From assembly GCA_048938445.1 (NCBI GenBank), contig JBHLME010000089.1:1-18421 (forward strand): DNA of 18,421 bases, in the 5' to 3' direction. The notes beneath the pieces are model-generated. The model was not told where the DNA came from. It ran no database searches and was given only the letters and a program-made list of their open reading frames with translations. The position numbers were made by a program, and so were the translations under genes. Positions 166-18,421 of the stretch are shown piece after piece. The stretch is from Promethearchaeota archaeon. Its GTDB lineage: Archaea > Asgardarchaeota > Lokiarchaeia > Sigyniarchaeales > SOKP01. Each line of letters begins with the position of its first letter. Within the stretch, counting starts at the first letter, position 1.

Positions 166-795
166 TTATTTATATATATTATCGAGACCATTAATCATGT
201 TTATGCGAGTCTGGTTGAATCCTTTTCTTAATGTCCTCATCAAAATTGTTTTACCCGTAGGAATTTTTAAAACTGATAAATCTTCTTCAATAATTTTTAT
301 ACTCTCATCTGTAAATTCTAACTGTCTAAGTAATACTTCATATGCTTCTTCTTTAGTTTTAAAAGCCGCTCTGATTAAGCTATCATAATCCTCGATATGA
401 TCTCGAACATTTAATAATAATATTGATTCTTCTATTTGTGAGATAAATGCTAATTTCACGATATTTTTTAATCTCTTAAAATTTTTATGGGTTTGCTTAC
501 ATTGTCGATATACTTGATCCCCTTTTAAATAATTATTAAAATTTTGCTCCACGACTTCATTAAATTTTACTTTTGAACCATTGCCATTGAGGCACAAATA
601 TTTTCCACAATCTAAAGTAGTTTTGATCTGCAAGAGAGTTCCTTGTCTTGCATCATTATTTTTCCAATAGTTATAGAAAGATTTTATCACTGGTTTCACG
701 ATAACATCAAGGACTCCTAAATTTAATTCAGTATCGATTAATTCATTCCCAAATTCAAAAGCATTTTCCATTACATCAATCATTTTTTGTTCCAA
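166..795 (-). CDS. Hypothetical, predicted alpha-helical soluble protein; start uncertain
   Basis: 209-codon ORF with normal protein composition and no recognised motif. The frame stays open upstream to 840, and an out-of-frame ATG lies at 844-842. Confidence 0.8.
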   Translation of the reverse strand: MEQKMIDVMENAFEFGNELIDTELNLGVLDVIVKPVIKSFYNYWKNNDARQGTLLQIKTTLDCGKYLCLNGNGSKVKFNEVVEQNFNNYLKGDQVYRQCKQTHKNFKRLKNIVKLAFISQIEESILLLNVRDHIEDYDSLIRAAFKTKEEAYEVLLRQLEFTDESIKIIEEDLSVLKIPTGKTILMRTLRKGFNQTRINMINGLDNIYK

Positions 796-996: not shown

Positions 997-3900
997 ATGC
1001 GTTATGTGTTTAAATTATTGTGTTTGGGAGATCCTGAAATTACTATACAATATGTGTCATCAGCTCTAGAGGAAATGGGTGACTCTAAAGAAACCCATAT
1101 TGAATGGTTCACGGAATTCAATGTTTTAGACAATGTGTGTGACTTAGAAATTGACATCATTACTGATCTTATTTCCGCGGAGTTTGACGAAATAATTCCT
1201 AGCGTAGATGGGATTATTTACTTTTTAAATCCTATAAATGAAGAAGAATTAACTTTCTTCAAAATTATCCTTCCAATTATAATGTCTGTAAAACGTGACA
1301 TTCCAACTATCATTTTATTCTATGATTCGGGAGGGATCATTCCTCATTCTACTAATAGATTATTGGAAGACATTTGGGTTAATTATCCCAATCTTGAGGC
1401 ATTTATCAATCTTGCTCCAAATCAATTTCATCAAGTTTTGCAGTGTATTTGTTTAGCAATGATAAATGGGGATACTCCATTAAATATTGAGAATGCTTGG
1501 ATGCGTTTTCCAATATTTATTCAACTAGCAAATTTTTATTTTGAGAATAAGAACTATTATTATGCTGCTCAAGCTATAAAAAATTTAGCAAATATAGCGG
1601 AAATATATGAAAAACAAGAATATTTTGTATATAGTGAACAAGCAGCATTTCTTTTTTCAAGATTAGGTCTATTTTTAGAAGCTAGTAAAGTAATTGAAAA
1701 GGTAGATCCAAAATTATCATACCTTTTTAAAAAAAGTTATGCTGAAACAATGATCGTTGAAGGAAATCAGCTTTTTAACAAAAATAAATATGAAAATGCC
1801 GCTATTCAATATGAAAGTGCTGGTCAATGGGCTTCAATTGAGTTAGGCGATAAAGAAATTATCAAAACCTCATTTGAATTAGCAATTAATTCTTGGATTT
1901 CTGCCTGTAAATGTGAGAAAGGTTTTTTAATTCTTGAAAGGCTACCGCATGAAAATATCAAAACTATATTGACAAGTCTCTCGGATAAAATAATTGCTGC
2001 TTCAGATTTTTTAATTTCTATTGGAAATTTATCTGCTGCTAAAGATCAATTATATTATTCCGTTTTTACTTATCAAAAAGAAAGTCTTTTTGAAGATTTA
2101 AAAAAAATTGTGTTAAAACTCTTAGAAGTTTTGAGTAAAATATTCGATATATCAATTCAAAAAAAAGAAATATATGAAGCAAAGTTTACCTATGACGAAA
2201 TAGAAAATATTTGGGAAACATTCAACATAGAAAAAACGAACCTAGACAGTAATTTAGAAATCTTGATTAAATTATTTGTAGATAAAATGAATCTTAGTAT
2301 GGCTTCAGCTCTGATTAATAAATTAAATTCTTTAGAATTAAAGAAAAAGTTAACGAAATACAGCTCAAAAATTGAAGAAAAAACGAAAAAAATTGAAAAA
2401 CAAGAAAAAGAAGATATAATAAAAAGAGGTATTGAAATTTTACAAGAATTCATCAAGGCAGAGCATGATATTATCGCTAAAATTAACATCCAAACCTTAA
2501 CAGAAGCAAATGGATTTATAGTACAAAATGATTGGTTAAAAGCTGCAACACATATTAAGCTACAGGCAGATTTTCTCCGGGAAATAGGAAAAGAGGATAT
2601 CGAAAATCAAATTTTAACAAAATCTTTAGATATATTGCTAGATGGTGAATTATTTGATAATTTTTTTAAATATTTTAAAAACTTAGATGAGAACATGAAA
2701 AAAAGTTATCTTACTCAAGTCTTTCCAGTCTACATTGAAAAACTAAAAACAATTAAAGAGAAGCAAGAACCTGAAAGTCCATTTAAAATTTTTGAAAATT
2801 CAATTTTAATATTTCGAAATCAAGAACTCTATGAGGAATCTAAGGAAATTGTTTCTTTATATATAGAAGTACTGAAGAAAGAAAGCATGAATATTATACG
2901 TGAAGAAGAAAACGAATATGGAATTGAAAAAGCAACAGATTTGATAAAAAAAATTTTAGACATTTCGTCCGCATATTTAGATAATATTACAATAAATTTT
3001 GATGAAATCTATAAAGCAATTTCGGAAATTTATCTTTATAAGATTGATGATCTTTCCTCAGCGCTCGCATATAACGATAAAATTGAAAATAAAGAAATTA
3101 AAATTGAGATTCATAAAAAAATTGCTAAAATTGAAGCCAAAAAAAGTGCTTCAATTATGAAAGCTGCAAGGAAATCTACAAGAGAAGCAATGTTAGAAGA
3201 AAGATTTTCAATTATAGAACAAAAAGCTGAAGATGCTTTGCGAGATCAAGAAAATGAACTAAAGCAAAGAATTGGTTTTAAACGTGCTTACTTTAATGAG
3301 CCTCTAATTTATTTAAAAATAAGAAAATTTGATGATGCAATTGATTTATATTTAGAAAGCATGATAAATTTAATAAATATAAAAAAGTATTATCTTTCAA
3401 GTGTATCATTTGCACTAGCCTGCCTATTACTTATAATTAAAGGTAATTTTGATAAAATTAACAGAATTTTGGAGGAAAGAGAAGCTTCTTCATCAAGTAA
3501 ATTATTTTTTGAAACATTTCCTGTAATATTAATTCAATTTCTCGTTGAGATTTATAATTTCAACGATAAATCTAAATTTCCTAAAGCATTAGCATTAATG
3601 AAAAATTTACCCTTATTCGAAGAAGAAAAAATGATTCTTGATGAATTCGTTAAAGAAGAGTTTGAAGGAGAAGATATGAAAAGGGAGGAAGGGATGATAA
3701 AAAAATCTAAAGGAAAAAGCGAAAAACCTCAAGATATAATGGAAAAAGTTGAGTTAGAACAGATCTTTAGTAAACTTCAGCAAAAAATGGTAGATACTCG
3801 CATAGATTCAGATAAAATTTTAAAAAAGCGAAAAGCAATGCGAAGACGTTATTATGATAATATTATTAATTCATTAGAAACGAATTCTTTTAATGAAGCT

Positions 3901-4221
3901 GCAGAAGAATATTATAATTTAGCTAACAACGCAGCAAAAAGGAAAGATTTCAATACTAGCGCTTTATCAATATTATTATATGGATTATCATTACTAAAAT
4001 CAAAAAGATCAATTATAGAGATTGAAAAAGATATTGAAAAATATTTAGATACTTTAGGTTTAAATAAGACCTTAGTCAGAGATACGTTTGAAATTAGTTT
4101 GATTCTATCTATTATTAGGGTAAAAAAAAAGGAAATCTTTGATTATGATTATAAAATAAAAGAAATGTTAAGCATCTTACCACTATTCGAGGAAGAAAAG
4201 AAACTTATTGTAAATTTTTAA
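997..4221 (+). CDS. Large protein: degenerate Ras/Rab-like N-terminal domain, TPR/SNAP-like alpha-solenoid, and duplicated C-terminal helical domain
   Basis: N-terminus YVFKLLCLGD...DGIIYFLNP...RDIPTIIL follows the small-GTPase strand pattern but lacks GKT/S, DxxG and NKxD. TPR-like helices occur downstream (KYENAAIQYESAGQWA, SFNEAAEEYYNLA). Two C-terminal segments both end in LPLFEEEK. Confidence 0.75.
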   Translation: MRYVFKLLCLGDPEITIQYVSSALEEMGDSKETHIEWFTEFNVLDNVCDLEIDIITDLISAEFDEIIPSVDGIIYFLNPINEEELTFFKIILPIIMSVKRDIPTIILFYDSGGIIPHSTNRLLEDIWVNYPNLEAFINLAPNQFHQVLQCICLAMINGDTPLNIENAWMRFPIFIQLANFYFENKNYYYAAQAIKNLANIAEIYEKQEYFVYSEQAAFLFSRLGLFLEASKVIEKVDPKLSYLFKKSYAETMIVEGNQLFNKNKYENAAIQYESAGQWASIELGDKEIIKTSFELAINSWISACKCEKGFLILERLPHENIKTILTSLSDKIIAASDFLISIGNLSAAKDQLYYSVFTYQKESLFEDLKKIVLKLLEVLSKIFDISIQKKEIYEAKFTYDEIENIWETFNIEKTNLDSNLEILIKLFVDKMNLSMASALINKLNSLELKKKLTKYSSKIEEKTKKIEKQEKEDIIKRGIEILQEFIKAEHDIIAKINIQTLTEANGFIVQNDWLKAATHIKLQADFLREIGKEDIENQILTKSLDILLDGELFDNFFKYFKNLDENMKKSYLTQVFPVYIEKLKTIKEKQEPESPFKIFENSILIFRNQELYEESKEIVSLYIEVLKKESMNIIREEENEYGIEKATDLIKKILDISSAYLDNITINFDEIYKAISEIYLYKIDDLSSALAYNDKIENKEIKIEIHKKIAKIEAKKSASIMKAARKSTREAMLEERFSIIEQKAEDALRDQENELKQRIGFKRAYFNEPLIYLKIRKFDDAIDLYLESMINLINIKKYYLSSVSFALACLLLIIKGNFDKINRILEEREASSSSKLFFETFPVILIQFLVEIYNFNDKSKFPKALALMKNLPLFEEEKMILDEFVKEEFEGEDMKREEGMIKKSKGKSEKPQDIMEKVELEQIFSKLQQKMVDTRIDSDKILKKRKAMRRRYYDNIINSLETNSFNEAAEEYYNLANNAAKRKDFNTSALSILLYGLSLLKSKRSIIEIEKDIEKYLDTLGLNKTLVRDTFEISLILSIIRVKKKEIFDYDYKIKEMLSILPLFEEEKKLIVNF

Positions 4222-5343: not shown

Positions 5344-6603
5344 ATGTCAACCAAAATTGATAACGTTATTACTCAGTTTACCAAATTTTTAGATACTTCT
5401 TTGATGAAAGTTAAGAAGTCTAAAACTATTGAAGATCTTTTGAAGTTACCCATCTCATGCTTTTCATTTATGAATAAAAACGAGGTAAAGATCATTGAGG
5501 ATTTATTTGAAGTATTTGATATTAGTGAAGCTGCTAATTTAAATAAAATAAATCCATTCGAAAAATTTTTATCAGTAGATCAAACTGAAGATCCCATCAA
5601 AGACAGTCAAATGAGAGAACAACTTGAACAGAAAATTGAAGAACTAAAACATAAATACCCAAATTTAGAAAGAAATTTAAAAAAGATGGCTACGATAAGT
5701 TCAATTATTAATTCCGTTTCAAACATTCCTGAGGAAACAACCAAGTGTCAACAAAAAGTTGTAGTTGTGGGATTAGATAATGCTGGAAAGACAGCAATAT
5801 TAACTAAATTTGGAGGGCGGTTAGGAATTAATGATCTAGCCAAATTAAAACCAACTAAAGGTATTAGTCGCAAGAAATTTAAATCTGATGATTTAGAACT
5901 AGTTGTATGGGATTTTGGAGGTCAAGAACAGTATCGAAAAAAATATTTAGAAACACCTGAACAATATTTCCTCCAATTAAACTTATTAATTTATGTAGTT
6001 GATGTTCAAGATCCTGACAGATTTGAAGAATCCATGGAATATTTCGATAAAATTCTTGATACAATTTATTATTTAGAAGAAAAACCGTACATAATGATTT
6101 ACATTCATAAATATGATCCTGATTTAAAGACTGATCCCGAGATTTTACTTAATATTGAATTATTAAAAGATAAATTGAACGATATTATTCAAGAGAAACA
6201 TACAGAATTTCATTATGAAATTTATTTAACTTCAATATTTTCTCTTATATCTACGGAACCGAGATTTTCAAAGTATATAAAGGATATAATGAGTACAAAT
6301 ATATCTCTTTCTGATCCCGTGCTTAAAAAAGTAGAAGGTTTGGGTAAAATCTTAGAAGAAACAATGAATGCAATAATAAGATTATCAGAAAGCACCTCAT
6401 TACAAATTAGAGAGATAGATCATCGTTTAAGGGCAATAGAAAGCGGTGCCGTTCAAGTTGGACAAGTTAATCAAACAGGTGCACCAATGGGAATGAACTC
6501 TTCTATTCCGCAGCAATCTATTACAAGAGAAGATAATATGAGAGCAAATGTATTGGATGAGCTAAAAATATTGTTTAAAAAACAAAAAAGATTAGAACTT
6601 TAG
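5344..6603 (+). CDS. Multidomain small GTPase (Arf/Rag-like) with about 135-aa N-terminal extension and C-terminal coiled coil
   Basis: G1 GLDNAGKT, G2 PTKG, G3 WDFGGQ, G4 HKYD, G5 TSIF. The stop codon overlaps that of the convergent PAP2 gene by 4 bp. Confidence 0.92.
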   Translation: MSTKIDNVITQFTKFLDTSLMKVKKSKTIEDLLKLPISCFSFMNKNEVKIIEDLFEVFDISEAANLNKINPFEKFLSVDQTEDPIKDSQMREQLEQKIEELKHKYPNLERNLKKMATISSIINSVSNIPEETTKCQQKVVVVGLDNAGKTAILTKFGGRLGINDLAKLKPTKGISRKKFKSDDLELVVWDFGGQEQYRKKYLETPEQYFLQLNLLIYVVDVQDPDRFEESMEYFDKILDTIYYLEEKPYIMIYIHKYDPDLKTDPEILLNIELLKDKLNDIIQEKHTEFHYEIYLTSIFSLISTEPRFSKYIKDIMSTNISLSDPVLKKVEGLGKILEETMNAIIRLSESTSLQIREIDHRLRAIESGAVQVGQVNQTGAPMGMNSSIPQQSITREDNMRANVLDELKILFKKQKRLEL

Positions 6604-7334: not shown

Positions 7335-7730
7335 TTAATAGACTTCCATGATTTTTTCAATGTAATTATTAATATTTTTAAATATCTCATCTACCTTGGA
7401 TTCATCACCAACAAAAAGTACTATAAAAGCATTTTTATGACAATCTAATATAATTACGGATTGATCCTCTAATTCAGTTATTATTTTGTCCAAATATGTT
7501 TCAGATACAGTGTTCATGAGGTCTTCAGCACTATCAATTACAGAAGCCGTCATAGCACTGAATTCATTTGCTTCAAAATTCTGGTCAAATACTTTCGAAA
7601 TTAAGTTTCCTTCGCGAGATGAGAGCAAAACTCCTTGTAAATTCCCACTTTCTTTAATTTCTGTTAAAATATATTCGATTTTTTTAAGATTAAATCTTTT
7701 ATTCGAGTTGCTACTATGCATTCTATTCAA
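7335..7730 (-). CDS. Roadblock/LC7 (MglB/LAMTOR-like) domain protein
   Basis: About 120-aa pattern: helix, GVLLSSREGNLI beta-hairpin, FSAMTASVIDSAEDL helix, three strands (KIITEL/SVIILD/AFIVLFV), final helix. Ends 12 bp before the PAP2 start, so a probable operon. Confidence 0.9.
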   Translation of the reverse strand: MNRMHSSNSNKRFNLKKIEYILTEIKESGNLQGVLLSSREGNLISKVFDQNFEANEFSAMTASVIDSAEDLMNTVSETYLDKIITELEDQSVIILDCHKNAFIVLFVGDESKVDEIFKNINNYIEKIMEVY

Positions 7731-9328: not shown

Positions 9329-9868
9329 TTGATTTACATTCAAGACGTTCTATTCAAGATTTGCATATTTGGAGATGGTGGTGTTGGTAAGACCACATTG
9401 TTGAATAGATATCTCACAGGATTATTCACAGAAGATTCTGGCATAACTATTGGAGTAGATTTTCACTTAAAAAAAATTACAATGGATGAGAGAAGAGTCT
9501 CATTACAAATTTGGGATTTTGCTGGAGAGGATAGATTTAGATTTCTTTTACCAAGTTATTTAATGGGTGCATCTGGAGGAATTTTTATGTTTGATATAAC
9601 GAGATATACAAGTTTAACGAATTTTAAAGATTGGTTAAAAGTTGTTGAACAAGGAACACAAAATCAAAGAGAAAGTATACCTATACTAATGGTTGGAAGC
9701 AAATTAGATTTAGAACATAAAAGAGCTGTTCCTATGGAGGATGCAATGGAAATAGCTAAACAAAATGGATTATATGGGTATGTAGAATGCTCCTCTAAAA
9801 CAGGTCAAAACGTAGAAGAAATTTTCATAGAATTAACCAAAGAAATGATCAGAAAAGCTAATCTTTAA
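9329..9868 (+). CDS. Rab-like small GTPase
   Basis: FKICIFGDGGVGKTT, TIGVDF (RabF1), LQIWDFAGEDRFR, GSKLDL, ECSSKTGQNVEEIF. TTG start; no C-terminal Cys tail. Confidence 0.95.
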   Translation: MIYIQDVLFKICIFGDGGVGKTTLLNRYLTGLFTEDSGITIGVDFHLKKITMDERRVSLQIWDFAGEDRFRFLLPSYLMGASGGIFMFDITRYTSLTNFKDWLKVVEQGTQNQRESIPILMVGSKLDLEHKRAVPMEDAMEIAKQNGLYGYVECSSKTGQNVEEIFIELTKEMIRKANL

Positions 9869-13331: not shown

Positions 13332-14513
13332 TTACCATCCAATTGTTAATCCTGGAAGTAGTAAACTTACTAGCATTACTCCAACCGTGATCATTATGGG
13401 ATTTAAAAGATTATCTGCTATTGATAGAGGAAAATAATCTAATAGAAAGAATATCAATCCTGTGATTAAACCATATATTGGACCTAGAAACATTAGTCCG
13501 ATTATAAATGCGCTACCTGATCCTGCGATAAATCCTTCTAGGGATTTAATATCTCCATTTATGCATTTTATCTTATGAGTTCCGTATTTCCTCCCTATTA
13601 ATGCAGCTAAAGCATCAGAAATGCATGCGATAACTATTGATGCCATTACTACAGAATCGAGGACCAATCCCATGATAAAAAGTAAGTATGAAAAAATAAC
13701 ACCTGCCAAGAGATAAATCTGAGGTCCTATTGCATTATATTCTTTATTTCTTAGTATTGCCCGTGTGACTACATTAAATAAGGAATACTCTGGACCCCAA
13801 AGAACCCGAATTAATTCAGAAGTTATTGTAAAAATCAAAGCAGCAATTAAAGCAAAAAAGGTGAGATCGATTACCGCTTGAGGATCTAAAGGAACATAAG
13901 GATAATCACTAACTGATCCCCATAAAAGATTATAAGACCATTCAACTTGTTTTATAAAAATGATAATAGAGTCATTAACTAATGAAGTAAGTGGTGCTAG
14001 GAAAAAAAATCCATAATATGCAAGTAAAATTAATATACAACATAAATGAAATGCTTTTCGAATCGCTTCCATTTTAATTGAAATTTGTTCCTTGTAAGGA
14101 CTTTCATTTTTAATAAAAACTACATATTTCTGGAGAGGTTTTAATTTTACAATTCCTCCATCAAGTGGTAATCCATTAATTTTTATATTGTCTACTTTTT
14201 TAATATTTCTACGCATTATTAATGCAAATAGGTAATTAACAAGCAAAATGATACCTATCCACCATACCATGAAACCATTGAAAGGATAAGGTAATAATCC
14301 AAAATAACTACCATTCTCTCTGGGTAATATTAGATTAAAAACTCCAAAAATTATAAATATTATACCACATACTATCGTGGAACCTCCTCCATAACGATTA
14401 TTGGATTTGAAACCTCTTTTTGAAATTAAAAACATTAAACCAGCTATAATAAAGAAATATAAAGAAAATGTAACGTTATATATATTTGCTACAATATTCC
14501 AAACCAAGTCCAT
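13332..14513 (-). CDS. CTP-dependent diacylglycerol/polyprenol (dolichol/phytol) kinase family membrane protein with extra N-terminal TM region
   Basis: RKAFH, DALAALIGRKYG, KSLEG and DNL motifs of the Dgk1/Sec59/VTE5 superfamily; many TM helices. Confidence 0.88.
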   Translation of the reverse strand: MDLVWNIVANIYNVTFSLYFFIIAGLMFLISKRGFKSNNRYGGGSTIVCGIIFIIFGVFNLILPRENGSYFGLLPYPFNGFMVWWIGIILLVNYLFALIMRRNIKKVDNIKINGLPLDGGIVKLKPLQKYVVFIKNESPYKEQISIKMEAIRKAFHLCCILILLAYYGFFFLAPLTSLVNDSIIIFIKQVEWSYNLLWGSVSDYPYVPLDPQAVIDLTFFALIAALIFTITSELIRVLWGPEYSLFNVVTRAILRNKEYNAIGPQIYLLAGVIFSYLLFIMGLVLDSVVMASIVIACISDALAALIGRKYGTHKIKCINGDIKSLEGFIAGSGSAFIIGLMFLGPIYGLITGLIFFLLDYFPLSIADNLLNPIMITVGVMLVSLLLPGLTIGW

Positions 14514-14675: not shown

Positions 14676-15647
14676 TTAAAAATATAAATTTGAAGGCTCT
14701 AAGATCTTTGGAAAAAATGGACGGAGAAAATTCAATGCACTAAAACAAAGGTGACATTTATCAGCATATCCATCTTGTGGCTTATATCCTTTCTCGACTG
14801 CCATCTCAAGAAGATTTTGAGGTCCGCCCTTTGCAACTAACTTTCCGATTATTGGGTGTTTTCTATAGCTAAAATTACTGATGATTTCAGATAATGGTTT
14901 ATTCTTTGTATTTCCAATACAAATTCCATGACATAATTGATGAAAAACCCATCCGTTGGGATCAATCATGAACGCTGGTGTTTTAAAAAAAAGACACTTA
15001 TCTACGAGCGTTGTTGTCCTTGAATACTCCCTTGTAAGTTCTTTTACGGCTCTGCCTCTAACTTGTAAGTCTGTGGTAATTGTCTCCAAAAACTCAAATT
15101 CTTTTAAAAGCGTACTGGTAATTTCCTTTGTCCTCTTGTTAAAGGCATTCTTCTCATTTTTAATTCCCAGATTTTGTGCAATCAAATGAATCCATTCAAT
15201 TCCTGCTTCATAAGCGGCTCTTATTGCTTGCTTAACATCATCAATTGGTATAAATTCTTGATGGAAAGCATCAACACTAAAGCCAATATGATTTAATCCT
15301 GCTTCTTTTAATTGTAAAGCATATTCTTTAGCAATTTTCTTATTTTTCCCCCAAAATCCATTCGTAGGTAAGCCAATTTTTGGAATTTCATATCGTTTCA
15401 CTTCCTTGACGAGACTAACTAATAAATCAAAATTTAGGAATGGTTCACCTCCAAAAAAACCTACTTCCCCAATTTCATAATAAGAAGTGATATCTTCCAT
15501 ATATCTTTTAACATCTTCTAATTTTATTGAAAGATTGTCTTGTTTTGGGGAACCTTGTAATGCACAATGCTTGCATTCATTTGTACATCTATAAGACACA
15601 AGAAAAGTAAGAAAATAGATTTTTTTTTTAAAAGTCTCATTACACAT
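14676..15647 (-). CDS. Radical SAM protein with Cys-containing C-terminal (SPASM/twitch-like) region
   Basis: CTNECKHC (CxxxCxxC), GGEP, TNGFW, SVDAFHQ, GRA, IDPNG..CHGICIGN, CHLC. Confidence 0.93.
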   Translation of the reverse strand: MCNETFKKKIYFLTFLVSYRCTNECKHCALQGSPKQDNLSIKLEDVKRYMEDITSYYEIGEVGFFGGEPFLNFDLLVSLVKEVKRYEIPKIGLPTNGFWGKNKKIAKEYALQLKEAGLNHIGFSVDAFHQEFIPIDDVKQAIRAAYEAGIEWIHLIAQNLGIKNEKNAFNKRTKEITSTLLKEFEFLETITTDLQVRGRAVKELTREYSRTTTLVDKCLFFKTPAFMIDPNGWVFHQLCHGICIGNTKNKPLSEIISNFSYRKHPIIGKLVAKGGPQNLLEMAVEKGYKPQDGYADKCHLCFSALNFLRPFFPKILEPSNLYF

Positions 15648-15716
15648 GTATTATCAACTCTTTTTTTTTAAATTCAATATTTTTTATAAAATTTTACTTG
15701 ATTAATTTTGCTTAAA

Positions 15717-16301
15717 TTATTCATTCTCTTTATCCAATTTATTTCTAAGTTCTAAAATTGTTTCATCAAAGTCCTTGATATATTCATTCATGCGATCGCG
15801 ATTTTCTATAATCGAGGCTCTCATTGATTCTAATAGTTGGAGTCTTTCATTAAGATTTAAATCCCCGGTAAATTTATCTGGTTTTAGAGCAGTTGGTAAC
15901 ATCTGGATATTTGGAATCTCATCAAATTGTTCCAGCTCTTCTATATTAACTGAACTACCATTTATAATCGTTGTCATTAAAAAGCGACGATAAGATTTAC
16001 GTATCTTTCGCTGAGTTTGTTTCATTAATTTTAATGTTTCTCGACCTTTATCAGTAATTTCATAAACTTTCCTATTTTTAGCATCTTCGATAAGTCTAAT
16101 AAATCCTTTTTCTCTTTGGTTATTTAAAATCCAATATAGCGTTGATGCTCTAGGTTTCCACATTCCTAAAGTGCGTTTTTCTATTTCTCTCCCGATCTTG
16201 TAACCATGAGAAGGGTGTTTCTCAAGTATAGAAAGGACAAATATATTAATGAAGTTTTTTTTCAATACTTTTTCAAAATTTTTATGATAATTTTCAGACA
16301 A
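15717..16301 (-). CDS. PadR-family winged-helix transcriptional regulator
   Basis: VLSILEKHPSHGYKI, STLYWIL, RKVYEITDKGRETL; C-terminal coiled coil; TTG start. Confidence 0.92.
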   Translation of the reverse strand: MSENYHKNFEKVLKKNFINIFVLSILEKHPSHGYKIGREIEKRTLGMWKPRASTLYWILNNQREKGFIRLIEDAKNRKVYEITDKGRETLKLMKQTQRKIRKSYRRFLMTTIINGSSVNIEELEQFDEIPNIQMLPTALKPDKFTGDLNLNERLQLLESMRASIIENRDRMNEYIKDFDETILELRNKLDKENE

Positions 16302-16794: not shown

Positions 16795-18357
16795 ATGAAT
16801 CAGACTATTAAATTTACGCTAAACAAATTTTTTCTAAGAGACATGAACATAACCACTAAAGGTTTTTTATTTTTTTTAGGTGGTTTTGTATATTATCTAA
16901 TCTCTCTTGAATATTTTATTCTATCAATTATTAAATATCTTGCAACACCTTACATATTAATTTTTATATTTTCTATTTTATTATCTTTTATTTTAGGAGG
17001 ATATATTGTTGATATTTATAAAAATAGGATGATCTTAATTTTAATTTCATCAATATTAGTTATATTTGGGATTATTTTTACATTTTCTGATACTGAATCG
17101 CTACAAATTGGCGGACTTATCATTATTTTCATGGCATCAACTGTTTTTATAATCGATTTGCACACAATACTCGTACATGAATCCACTATTCTTAATCGTG
17201 GTAGATTAACGAGTTATCTCTTATTCTTTTCAATAATTATCGCAACTAGCATACTTTTAACATCTATTTTGAATTTAATTGCAATTATAATTATTTTAAC
17301 CATAATTGTCTTCATTAATATATTCTATATTTTGAGGGAATATTCTTATATTGAGTCAAATGAACGTCTTTCTTCTGATTTATCCTTTAGGGTGTATCTA
17401 TCTCAAGATCCTATAAATGGATATTTATTTTTATTTTTAATATTAAGCATCATTGTAGGCTATTCATTTCCAAGTTCATTTAGTTTGGTTATTAATCCTT
17501 TTAGTTTGTTTATATTTATATTAGGCTTTTTGATATACATAGGAGTTTTATTAGATAATCAAGGAAGAAAATGGAGTTTCACAGCTACTTTATTTACATT
17601 TACATTGTTGTTTTTATTAGAAGATCTCAACTTTATCATTAATTTCTATAATGAAATTTTTTTTGGGCTCTCAATACCTCTGGTACTTGTATTAATTTTT
17701 ACATTTTCAGGAGATTTTTCAACAAAAAGAAATACCATTAAATATAGGGGAAGAATATTATCAATCTTTTTAATAATACTCCTTAGTGGAATAACTATGG
17801 GGGTGATTTTCAAGGTGTTTTTCAGTCTTTTGGTTACCATTTTTCCCGAAATTGTTTGGTTTTCAACTATCTCTAAAATCTTTGGTTTCTTTCTCGTTAT
17901 TATATCATTGGTCCGGATAATGCCTCTTCCAGAAATACTTTCTGCAAAGGAAGCAGATTGGGCAAAAACAATCCAAAGTATATATATCTTTAATAAAGAT
18001 TCTATTTGCCTCTTTAATAAAGACTATACTACCTCCTCCGAAGATTCAGAGGGGATATGTGAGGATTTAGTAACTAGTGGATTAACAGGCATTATGGGTT
18101 TGATTTCAGAAATTACTAATGAACAAAAAAACTTGAGGATAATTGATAAAGAACGTGTAAAAATATATTTCACTTATGGTAAATTTGTTAATATTGCATT
18201 AATCTCAACAAAGTTTTTACCAATTCTATTTAAAAAAATGGAAATTTTCATGAAAGCTTTTGAAAAACATTTTGAACAGGATTTAAAAGAATTTAATGGA
18301 AATATTAACGTTTTTTTAGAAGACACGGATGAAATTATTCAAAAATATTTTAAATAA
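16795..18357 (+). CDS. 12-TM MFS-fold membrane protein fused to a C-terminal longin-like domain
   Basis: Twelve hydrophobic segments in a 6+6 arrangement. MFS motif-A-like loops GGYIVDIYKNR and GVLLDNQGRKW; RGR loops (NRGRL, YRGRI). Soluble C-terminal 130 aa show a beta-beta-alpha-beta-beta-beta-alpha-alpha pattern (SIYIFNKDSICLF...DLVTSGLTGIMGLISEI...FEKHF...FNGN). Start may be 16843. Confidence 0.8.
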   Translation: MNQTIKFTLNKFFLRDMNITTKGFLFFLGGFVYYLISLEYFILSIIKYLATPYILIFIFSILLSFILGGYIVDIYKNRMILILISSILVIFGIIFTFSDTESLQIGGLIIIFMASTVFIIDLHTILVHESTILNRGRLTSYLLFFSIIIATSILLTSILNLIAIIIILTIIVFINIFYILREYSYIESNERLSSDLSFRVYLSQDPINGYLFLFLILSIIVGYSFPSSFSLVINPFSLFIFILGFLIYIGVLLDNQGRKWSFTATLFTFTLLFLLEDLNFIINFYNEIFFGLSIPLVLVLIFTFSGDFSTKRNTIKYRGRILSIFLIILLSGITMGVIFKVFFSLLVTIFPEIVWFSTISKIFGFFLVIISLVRIMPLPEILSAKEADWAKTIQSIYIFNKDSICLFNKDYTTSSEDSEGICEDLVTSGLTGIMGLISEITNEQKNLRIIDKERVKIYFTYGKFVNIALISTKFLPILFKKMEIFMKAFEKHFEQDLKEFNGNINVFLEDTDEIIQKYFK

Positions 18358-18421
18358 CTAAAAAATTATATTTATAAATTTGTATTGTCTATCATAATTT
18401 ACTTTAACAAAAAAAATATAA

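Follow-up and report, generated by a model that had tools for sequence, protein, structure and literature searches.

To our knowledge, every longin or roadblock module characterised so far functions as a dimer, which engages small GTPases or else partners of the coat and adaptor kind. In Asgard archaea, the genes for longin, roadblock and small-GTPase proteins number in the dozens. Here we describe a gene of a Promethearchaeota archaeon (assembly GCA_048938445.1) that encodes, in one polypeptide, a putative membrane carrier from the major facilitator superfamily (MFS) followed by a predicted longin-type domain. The gene lies at 16795..18357 on the forward (+) strand of an AT-rich stretch of Asgard-type DNA of 18,421 nucleotides (contig JBHLME010000089.1), which we refer to as the window throughout.

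A first annotation of the locus, made from the DNA letters and their translations (the initial annotation), had suspected that such an architecture may already have been catalogued, and this is indeed the case. In Supplementary Tables 2-3 of PMC9834061 the groups ORTHOMCL313 and ORTHOMCL3043 are annotated as 'MFS family permease; Longin domain' (cog.000057 and cog.005007, TRAPPC1_Bet5); ORTHOMCL313 is found in both L. ossiferum and P. syntrophicum, with UYP44987.1 marked as a putative eukaryotic signature protein in Supplementary Table 3. According to the annotation given there, these groups share with the window protein the same pair of domains in a single chain, i.e. MFS_1 and a TRAPPC1/Bet5-like longin. 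No named match from L. ossiferum or P. syntrophicum is present in our lists of homologues. In the literature searched, the fusion is met in supplementary annotation tables, with no running-text description or functional study (the asCOG tables of 10.1101/2020.10.19.343400 lay outside the search), and the accessible passages of PMC10933270, PMC7997004, PMC4917890, 10.1101/2020.10.19.343400 and 10.64898/2026.10.28.762692 hold no account of it. As we show below, the MFS-longin architecture is real, conserved and of a catalogued kind; a role in signalling is suggested by analogy.

The fusion gene and the predicted fold of its product

The open reading frame (ORF) runs uninterrupted from the ATG at 16795 to the TAA at 18355-18357 and encodes 520 amino acids. 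A word-seeded HMMER search (E <= 1e-3) retrieved 69 homologues, nearly all of 500-560 amino acids and between 100% and 34% identical, and a scan of one genome per species yielded 57 distinct loci; since the frame is conserved in the homologues and loci alike, a chance ORF is ruled out. The named homologues come from Asgard metagenome bins that their submitters labelled Promethearchaeota, Lokiarchaeota or Thorarchaeota. One contig with a typical family member (L061) was assigned to a bin named 'Candidatus Nanopelagicaceae bacterium', probably by a binning error. For the analyses below we aligned the window protein with 62 of the 69 homologues (alignment A1, 63 sequences, 47% mean column identity), leaving out the short or partial P0005, P0006, P0025, P0058, P0060 and P0062 as well as P0002, which is the database version of the window protein begun at the second ATG (16843; 504 amino acids). 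Since R15 and D16, both encoded 5' of ATG 16843, are conserved in at least 90% of the 63 aligned sequences, we favour the start at 16795. A precomputed MFS_1 match is available for 38 of the 69 homologues, and our own Pfam scan of the A1 members detects MFS_1 in 56/63 (best E 1.2e-14), along with weak matches to Sybindin (7/63, best E 1.8e-4) and Fuz_longin_1 (2/63).

The protein is predicted to begin with a K/R-rich cytoplasmic helix (residues 2-14, 16798..16836, +; assigned as helix by DSSP, with a mean of 4.35 K+R in residues 1-20), which leads via the near-invariant R15 and D16 into the membrane domain (residues 21-375, 16855..17919, +). The family-averaged hydropathy profile of this domain has twelve peaks, at residues 34, 63, 90, 117, 147 and 170, and at residues 216, 244, 270, 293, 330 and 375, the two sets of six being separated by a central cytoplasmic loop (181-206). 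In good agreement with this count, and with the twelve transmembrane (TM) segments read from the sequence initially, the full-length AlphaFold2 model built on A1 contains twelve long helices (mean predicted local distance difference test score (pLDDT) 85.9, predicted TM-score (pTM) 0.74). When the model was compared with the PDB using Foldseek, at least 500 matches were returned. Of these, 195 reach E <= 0.001, and MFS carriers account for all of the best 50: VMAT2 comes first (9kq8, E 4.6e-7), followed by VMAT1, LmrP, MelB, NorA, MCT8 and OCT/URAT, with TM-scores normalised to the target of up to 0.72 among the MFS matches listed. Judged by hydropathy, the model, Foldseek and MFS_1 matches within the family, the membrane part is an MFS fold made of two six-helix halves.

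Motif A of MFS carriers (G-x3-D-R/K-x-G-R-R/K) is located in the loop between TM2 and TM3 and is often repeated between TM8 and TM9. In the window protein both loops are motif-A-like. The first copy, G69 YIV D73 IY K76 N R78 (16999..17028, +), is degenerate and lacks the G-R pair, with D73 found in 63/63, G69 in 62/63 and R78 in 55/63 sequences; the second and fuller copy, G250 VLL D254 N Q G257 R258 K259 (17542..17571, +), has G250, D254, G257 and K259 invariant in 63/63. A further pair is formed by the loop between TM4 and TM5, H128 E S T I L N R135 G R137 (17176..17205, +; H128, L133, R135 and R137 invariant in 63/63), and its symmetry mate between TM10 and TM11, D307 F S T310 K R312 ... 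Y R318 G R320 (17713..17754, +; D307, T310 and R318 invariant). The internal duplication of MFS loop motifs that the initial annotation had described thus holds for two pairs of loops, most of whose key positions are invariant across the 63 sequences. The invariant D73, R135, R137, D254, K259, D307 and R318 sit at the cytoplasmic helix ends. Averaged over the family, K+R number 23.1 in the N-terminus, the odd-numbered loops and the segment following TM12, versus 1.2 in the even-numbered loops, and we therefore predict that both termini, and with them the C-terminal domain, are cytoplasmic.

A juxtamembrane linker (residues 376-392, 17920..17970, +) with the conserved sequence E-I-L-S-A-K-E-x-D-W connects TM12 to the soluble part; model confidence drops to pLDDT < 50 at residues 384-386. 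Its tryptophan is invariant, both in A1 (W389) and in a second alignment, A2, which contains the longin domains of 60 loci and the window (61 sequences, 59% mean column identity; W10). The soluble domain had been placed from about 17959 onwards, which is the codon of this very tryptophan, with the first strand following at residue 393. Residues 393-520 (17971..18354, +) constitute the predicted cytoplasmic longin-type (sybindin/TRAPPC1-like) domain, with elements in the order b1 b2 a1 b3 b4 b5 a2 a3: in the full-length model DSSP assigns strands to residues 393-400 and 405-410, a helix to 423-440, strands to 449-452, 455-461 and 465-471, and helices to 476-498 and 505-519. The same order, bb-a-bbb-aa, is present in a model of the domain alone (pLDDT 86.2, pTM 0.81), as expected from the longin strand and helix order proposed at the outset. 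Ahead of b1 there are just two short helical turns (model residues 5-13) and no long N-terminal helix.

Searching the PDB with the domain model, Foldseek ranks TRAPPC1 first and second (7b6d_C, 6.9e-5; 2j3t_C, 8.3e-5), with adaptor small chains, zeta-COP, LAMTOR, MglB and Mon1-Ccz1 among the lower matches. We augmented this result with VIA-align, a structure search independent of Foldseek that covered 48,161 chains and in which rows within one Z unit count as tied. All of its top 15 matches are longin-fold chains (Z 11.1-12.2); each covers at least model residues 13-141, starting at a residue between 1 and 13, and they include CPLANE (7q3d_C, Z 12.2), Bet5 (3cue_C, Z 12.0), TRAPPC1 (7b6d_C, Z 12.0), the VAMP7 longin (4afi_B, Z 11.7) and Mon1-Ccz1 (5ldd_E and others, Z 11.4-11.6). 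A solved Lokiarchaeota longin (8yqg_B) scores Z 10.7. Consistently, a search of PDB sequences with the A2 profile produced only two believable matches, Trs23 (E 0.0079) and TRAPPC1 (E 0.085), both of them TRAPP longins aligned from their own residue 2. No NCBIfam family matches the domain scanned alone at E <= 1, and the leads from the ESM Atlas, all below 0.9, are archaeal clusters of about 140 amino acids, one of which is named Roadblock/LAMTOR2 and has Fuz_longin_1 on 22% of its members.

Roadblock structures score well in the same search (MK-D1 Roadblock3, Z 10.8; MglB, Z 10.3), and given the ties Z alone is insufficient for telling the two folds apart. We favour longin over roadblock on the grounds that longin matches cover both C-terminal helices and agree in the order of helices and strands: they align over 116-130 residues, versus 91-109 for Roadblock structures, whose widest span is 9-120 and most of whose alignments end at model residues 108-116. 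The matches to MK-D1 Roadblock3 and MglB break off around residue 116-120, with 91-107 residues aligned. Robl_LC7 is absent from the 15 Pfam families listed for the 63 A1 members, and comparison of the longin domain family with the neighbouring Roadblock family by hhalign revealed no similarity (probability 0.5%). With no N-terminal helix, a third helix present, no Robl_LC7 match and this hhalign result, we rejected a canonical Roadblock/LC7 identity. The C-terminal tail is, as modelled, a TRAPPC1/Bet5-type longin fold on the cytoplasmic side of the membrane. Its most conserved stretch comprises helix a1 and strand b3 (E-D-L-I-T-G-G-L-T-G-I ... S-E-I-T ... L-R-I-I-D-K); roadblock proteins dimerise through the equivalent central helix (PMC10933270). 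On the three points that the initial annotation had named as able to refute its reading, then, the tail models as longin by both Foldseek and VIA-align, the membrane part models as MFS, and the charge distribution puts the domain inside the cell.

Membrane-tethered longin domains across Asgard archaea

The A2 profile was searched against 1.84 billion cluster representatives and matched 1680 proteins at E <= 1e-3 and 560 at the stricter E <= 1e-10; the domain is C-terminal in nearly every case. Of the best 150 representatives, two were already in A1; in the other 148 we counted the hydropathy peaks that mark TM helices. Architecture varies with length: proteins of up to 250 amino acids (n=32) have 0-3 TM peaks, those of 251-450 amino acids (n=50) have 4-7 peaks in 45 cases, those of 451-650 amino acids (n=56) have 9-12 peaks in 52 cases, and those above 650 amino acids (n=10) have 1-2 peaks in nine cases, corresponding to a signal peptide and one TM helix. 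The longin-type domain thus almost always sits behind one, 2-3, 6-7 or 12 TM helices, and membrane tethering is its common denominator.

A Pfam scan of 31 of these representatives detected MFS_1, below cut-off, in three of the four long 12-TM proteins scanned, and gave no Pfam match for the seven proteins scanned from the 6-7TM class. Four single-pass proteins (P0084, P0106, P0134 and P0151) carry a wHTH-PRTase_assc winged-helix domain after the longin domain, and one further protein, P0295, combines the longin-type domain with PAS, HisKA and HATPase_c. The 6-7TM class may or may not represent half of an MFS carrier: alignment of its profile (A5) with A1 by hhalign is confident over the linker and the longin domain alone, with the E-x-x-W junction aligned at high confidence.

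Within the genome from which the window comes, the longin-type domain is found in 17 places by a search of the genome and in 21 ORFs by hmmsearch. One of these is a second MFS-longin paralogue on contig C243 (585 amino acids, 27% identical) that belongs to a family of its own with 53 homologues and keeps both the motif-A-like networks and the twelve helices. Directly downstream of this paralogue lies a gene for a 361-amino-acid protein (L002 3155..4240, +) with a weak DUF5814 match alone. Another longin-type domain is contained in a 1487-amino-acid receptor-like protein (L063 528..4991; G000:C113:19327-23790), in which a signal peptide and a large ectodomain rich in Asn are followed by one TM helix, the longin-type domain and an extended charged tail, and whose gene is followed 341 nt downstream by a Roadblock paralogue (C113:24131-24496). 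A soluble protein of 1264 amino acids (L064 481..4275; G000:C97) has a long coiled-coil-like middle part and a longin-type domain at its C-terminus.

To place these observations in a taxonomic frame, we used a GTDB-based sample of 201 Asgard genomes. The longin-type domain is present in 182/201 genomes, in 87/88 high-quality genomes and in 23/25 GTDB families, at 1-17 matches per genome. The MFS-longin family itself (E <= 1e-30) was found in 22/201 genomes, all in one GTDB family: besides the genome of the window, 21/45 genomes of that family have it, versus 0/155 in the other 24 families. This count scored seven first-look candidates per genome, making the absences soft, and the submitter labels of some MFS-longin loci (Thor-, Odin-, Hermod- and Hodarchaeota) disagree with a single-family distribution. 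The MFS-longin protein is one member of a set of longin domains that are tethered to the membrane and occur throughout the Asgard archaea.

Gene context and possible function

For the comparison of neighbourhoods, ORFs were called in all loci, clustered by BLASTP and the clusters named by Pfam. The window contains genes for TFIIB, an Arf/RagA-like GTPase, a PAP2 protein, a Roadblock/LC7 protein (7335..7730, -), an M20 peptidase, a Ras-like GTPase (9329..9868), a HAD phosphatase, a radical-SAM protein and a PadR regulator. The Arf/RagA-like GTPase (5344..6603, +; 419 amino acids) has its G domain at residues 134-300 only, and its N-terminal (130 amino acids) and C-terminal (120 amino acids) extensions, which have no Pfam match, could be longin or roadblock flanks. 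At 997..4221 (+) there is an ORF of 1074 amino acids with no Pfam or NCBIfam match.

Among the loci closest to the window (41-66% identity), the gene order is Roadblock(-), M20(+), Ras-like(+), HAD(-), CTP_transf_1-like(-), MFS-longin(+), Roadblock(+ or -), Rpb7(+) and DUF359(+). The orthologue of the Ras-like GTPase is found in 11 close-clade loci plus the window, and the CTP_transf_1-like membrane protein gene, which is divergent to MFS-longin and stands beside the HAD phosphatase, in 19 plus the window. In the window the latter corresponds to a multi-pass membrane protein of 393 amino acids (13332..14513, -) that has no Pfam match itself; of 16 aligned orthologues, 12 match PF01148 (CTP_transf_1, cytidylyltransferase/dolichol-kinase family; best E 1e-6), and a profile of the family (A4) finds no match among PDB sequences. 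The presence of this gene and of a HAD phosphatase beside MFS-longin may hint at a lipid-phosphate theme. The radical-SAM and PadR genes (14676..16301, -) stand between the CTP_transf_1-like and MFS-longin genes in the window only; since the related loci have neither, this stretch looks like a local insertion.

The window's contig stops 64 nt past the MFS-longin stop codon. Positions 18283..18421 of the window are matched, at 138/139 identical nucleotides, by an overlapping contig from the same assembly, C236, and, judging from this overlap and from synteny, the window's contig most likely continues into C236. At the start of C236 the reads of four sequencing runs gave two short contigs of one run, neither bridging to the transporter gene. 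C236 encodes a highly conserved MglB-like Roadblock/LC7 protein (L003 178..579, +; 211..576 from the ATG; Pfam 5.8e-19), followed by Rpb7; given the join, the Roadblock ATG would lie 135 nt after the MFS-longin stop. A second, nearly identical copy of this Roadblock gene is present on C164 (4167-4532). Across the family, a downstream Roadblock/LC7 gene is immediately adjacent in 15/57 loci (on the - strand in five of them) and within four genes in another four.

How might such a protein work? The account that we rate highest, and still hold tentatively, is that of a docking platform: a 12-helix MFS carrier whose longin tail pairs with a longin/roadblock partner and engages a GTPase. The MFS part would still cycle between conformations, as is suggested by the invariance of the two motif-A-like networks, which would form the gate on the cytoplasmic side. 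Held beside this side of the carrier, the longin domain would pair with a second protein of the longin or roadblock type, and together they would bind a Ras-superfamily GTPase at the cell membrane. The state of the transporter and the bound partner would be coupled, such that information may flow outwards, as the output of a sensor, or inwards, as regulation of the transporter. We place a longin/roadblock partner and a GTPase at the head of the list by analogy with the characterised modules of this kind. The Roadblock gene that follows the transporter in 15/57 loci and on C236, together with the one next to the receptor-like longin gene of C113, fits this account. The initial annotation had proposed a stricter version of this scheme, a single-chain sensor of a solute or lipid that couples conformational change in the membrane to a small GTPase. 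In such a transceptor the inward- or outward-facing state of the MFS part, set by the solute or lipid, would control pairing of the longin domain with Roadblock and the loading or unloading of the GTPase; as a sub-case of the docking platform, we regard it as quite improbable.

Several observations weigh against the docking platform. The genome of the window has 97 small-GTPase ORFs (phmmer followed by a profile, E <= 1e-10), and 0/21 longin-domain genes lie within 5 kb of any of them (null mean 3.3, P(null = 0) 0.028). The two GTPase genes of the window, at 5344 and 9329, are 10.2 and 6.9 kb from MFS-longin, separated from it by several genes that lie on both strands. A Roadblock gene lies within 1 kb of 1/21 longin-domain genes within a contig (the C113 protein), or of 2/21 with the C236 join, against a null mean of 0.29 (P(>=2) 0.034), a weak hint at best. 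The adjacent Roadblock gene belongs to the core set: its orthologue is present in 61/61 genomes of the GTDB family (E <= 1e-25; best E <= 1e-62 in 57), including genomes in which the MFS-longin family was not found, and the adjacency falls within a long syntenic block with housekeeping genes such as Rpb7; it may thus reflect nothing other than inherited gene order. In the distant clade (32-37% identity, 33 loci, L026-L062) the flanking genes are not Roadblock: low-molecular-weight phosphatase genes on the opposite strand stand on both sides. As for the carrier itself, the intramembrane polar positions are moderately conserved (E39 polar in 51/63, D121 in 46/63), and the window protein matches no Pfam family at E <= 0.01 and no NCBIfam family at E <= 1. 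Gene context, in sum, mostly does not support a partnership with a GTPase or Roadblock protein. Likewise, the small-GTPase genes of MK-D1 as a rule share no operon with those for roadblock or longin proteins (PMC10933270).

In the same distant clade, an L-aspartate oxidase gene follows MFS-longin, and two tandem MFS-longin copies are present in 14 loci. We considered reading its phosphatases as arsenate reductases, and hence the transporter as an arsenic carrier, but found no support for this: the NCBIfam matches are all far below the cut-offs and mix Wzb-type phosphatase with ArsC.

The absence of GTPase genes within 5 kb of longin-domain genes in this genome sits comfortably with another view, in which the longin domain would act independently of any GTPase. 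As a module for regulation or dimerisation, similar to PAS or GAF domains, it would bind a small ligand or its own copy and thereby control transport, oligomeric state or output. This domain also follows receptor-like ectodomains in single-pass proteins, ahead of the wHTH-PRTase_assc winged helix (P0084, P0106, P0134, P0151), and is part of the PAS/HisKA/HATPase_c protein P0295; longin fusions with two-component signalling domains have been described by Liu et al., and longins have been placed in the PAS/GAF superfamily (PMC4917890). The closest structural matches of the domain, however, are the GTPase-platform longins of TRAPP, Mon1-Ccz1 and CPLANE, and we consider a GTPase-independent module unlikely. 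We give somewhat less credence still to the idea that the MFS part is a pseudo-transporter scaffold that merely anchors the longin domain to the membrane. The variety of anchors on which the domain is found (0-3, 4-7 or 9-12 TM helices, or a single pass), the variability of the intramembrane polar positions and the failure of the window protein to reach any Pfam threshold would all fit; yet twelve helices and both motif-A-like networks are invariant across 63 sequences and kept in the 27%-identical paralogous family, which would be costly for a mere anchor, and MFS_1 is still recognised in 56/63 members. The least probable alternative is an ordinary MFS carrier whose longin tail serves sorting, stability or membrane placement in the manner of coat-adaptor small subunits, with no signalling: structural matches at Z 9.3-11.2 include adaptor sigma, the mu N-terminal domains and zeta-COP, and the family is accessory and patchy (21/45 genomes of one GTDB family, 0/155 elsewhere), but no coat-like partners were identified in the present analysis, and the greater conservation of the longin domain (59% mean column identity in A2 versus 47% in A1) suggests a specific interaction surface.

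Returning to the docking platform, what would it mean for Asgard cell biology? Asgard GTPases are without the lipid anchors used in eukaryotes (table of PMC4917890). Membrane-tethered longins would be a plausible means of bringing GTPase regulators to the membrane, the MFS fusion being one well-conserved example. It also provides a testable handle: a single polypeptide with a confidently modelled soluble domain of about 130 amino acids and a candidate Roadblock neighbour. Should a partner be found, this would show the attachment of GTPase-type regulation to membranes before eukaryotic organelles; should there be none, the domain would serve archaea as a general module for signalling or dimerisation, and to call it eukaryote-like would mislead.

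Comparison with known systems

Among systems of known function, the longin domain resembles TRAPPC1/Bet5 and TRAPPC4/Trs23 of the TRAPP complex, a guanine nucleotide exchange factor (GEF) for Rab, with which it shares the fold and the order of elements (Z 12.0, 122-129 aligned residues). In TRAPP, however, the longins are soluble and form part of a complex of several subunits, whereas the window domain is the tail of a 12-TM protein, and identity is 10-13%. The Rab GEFs Mon1-Ccz1 and CPLANE (Fuzzy/Inturned) are likewise among the top structural matches (Z 11.4-12.2), and Fuz_longin_1 matches 2/63 members weakly; in these GEFs, which are soluble, two different subunits pair and each contains three longin domains, as opposed to the single longin domain of the window protein. 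A longin and a membrane anchor in one chain are found in the longin SNAREs VAMP7, Sec22 and Ykt6 (Z 7.9-11.7). Their order is reversed, an N-terminal longin being followed by the SNARE motif and one C-terminal TM helix, and in the model of the window protein DSSP reveals no SNARE-like coiled coil.

For the membrane part, the best fold matches are carriers of the DHA1/SLC18 type (VMAT1/2, LmrP and NorA; E 4.6e-7 to 1e-5, TM-score to target 0.55-0.72). They are 12-15% identical to the window protein and none of them has a longin tail. Reading the sequence of TM5, we saw no G-P sequence resembling motif C.

Were the transceptor proposal true, the closest functional parallel would be SLC38A9-Ragulator-Rag, with the shared logic of a transporter, a longin/roadblock platform and a small GTPase at a membrane. 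SLC38A9 has another transporter fold, its platform proteins are separate polypeptides, and it is the N-terminal tail of the transporter that binds. The MFS-longin protein would then be a prokaryotic counterpart of this logic, and the other membrane-tethered longins of Asgard archaea would act as parallel input channels to the same GTPase network.

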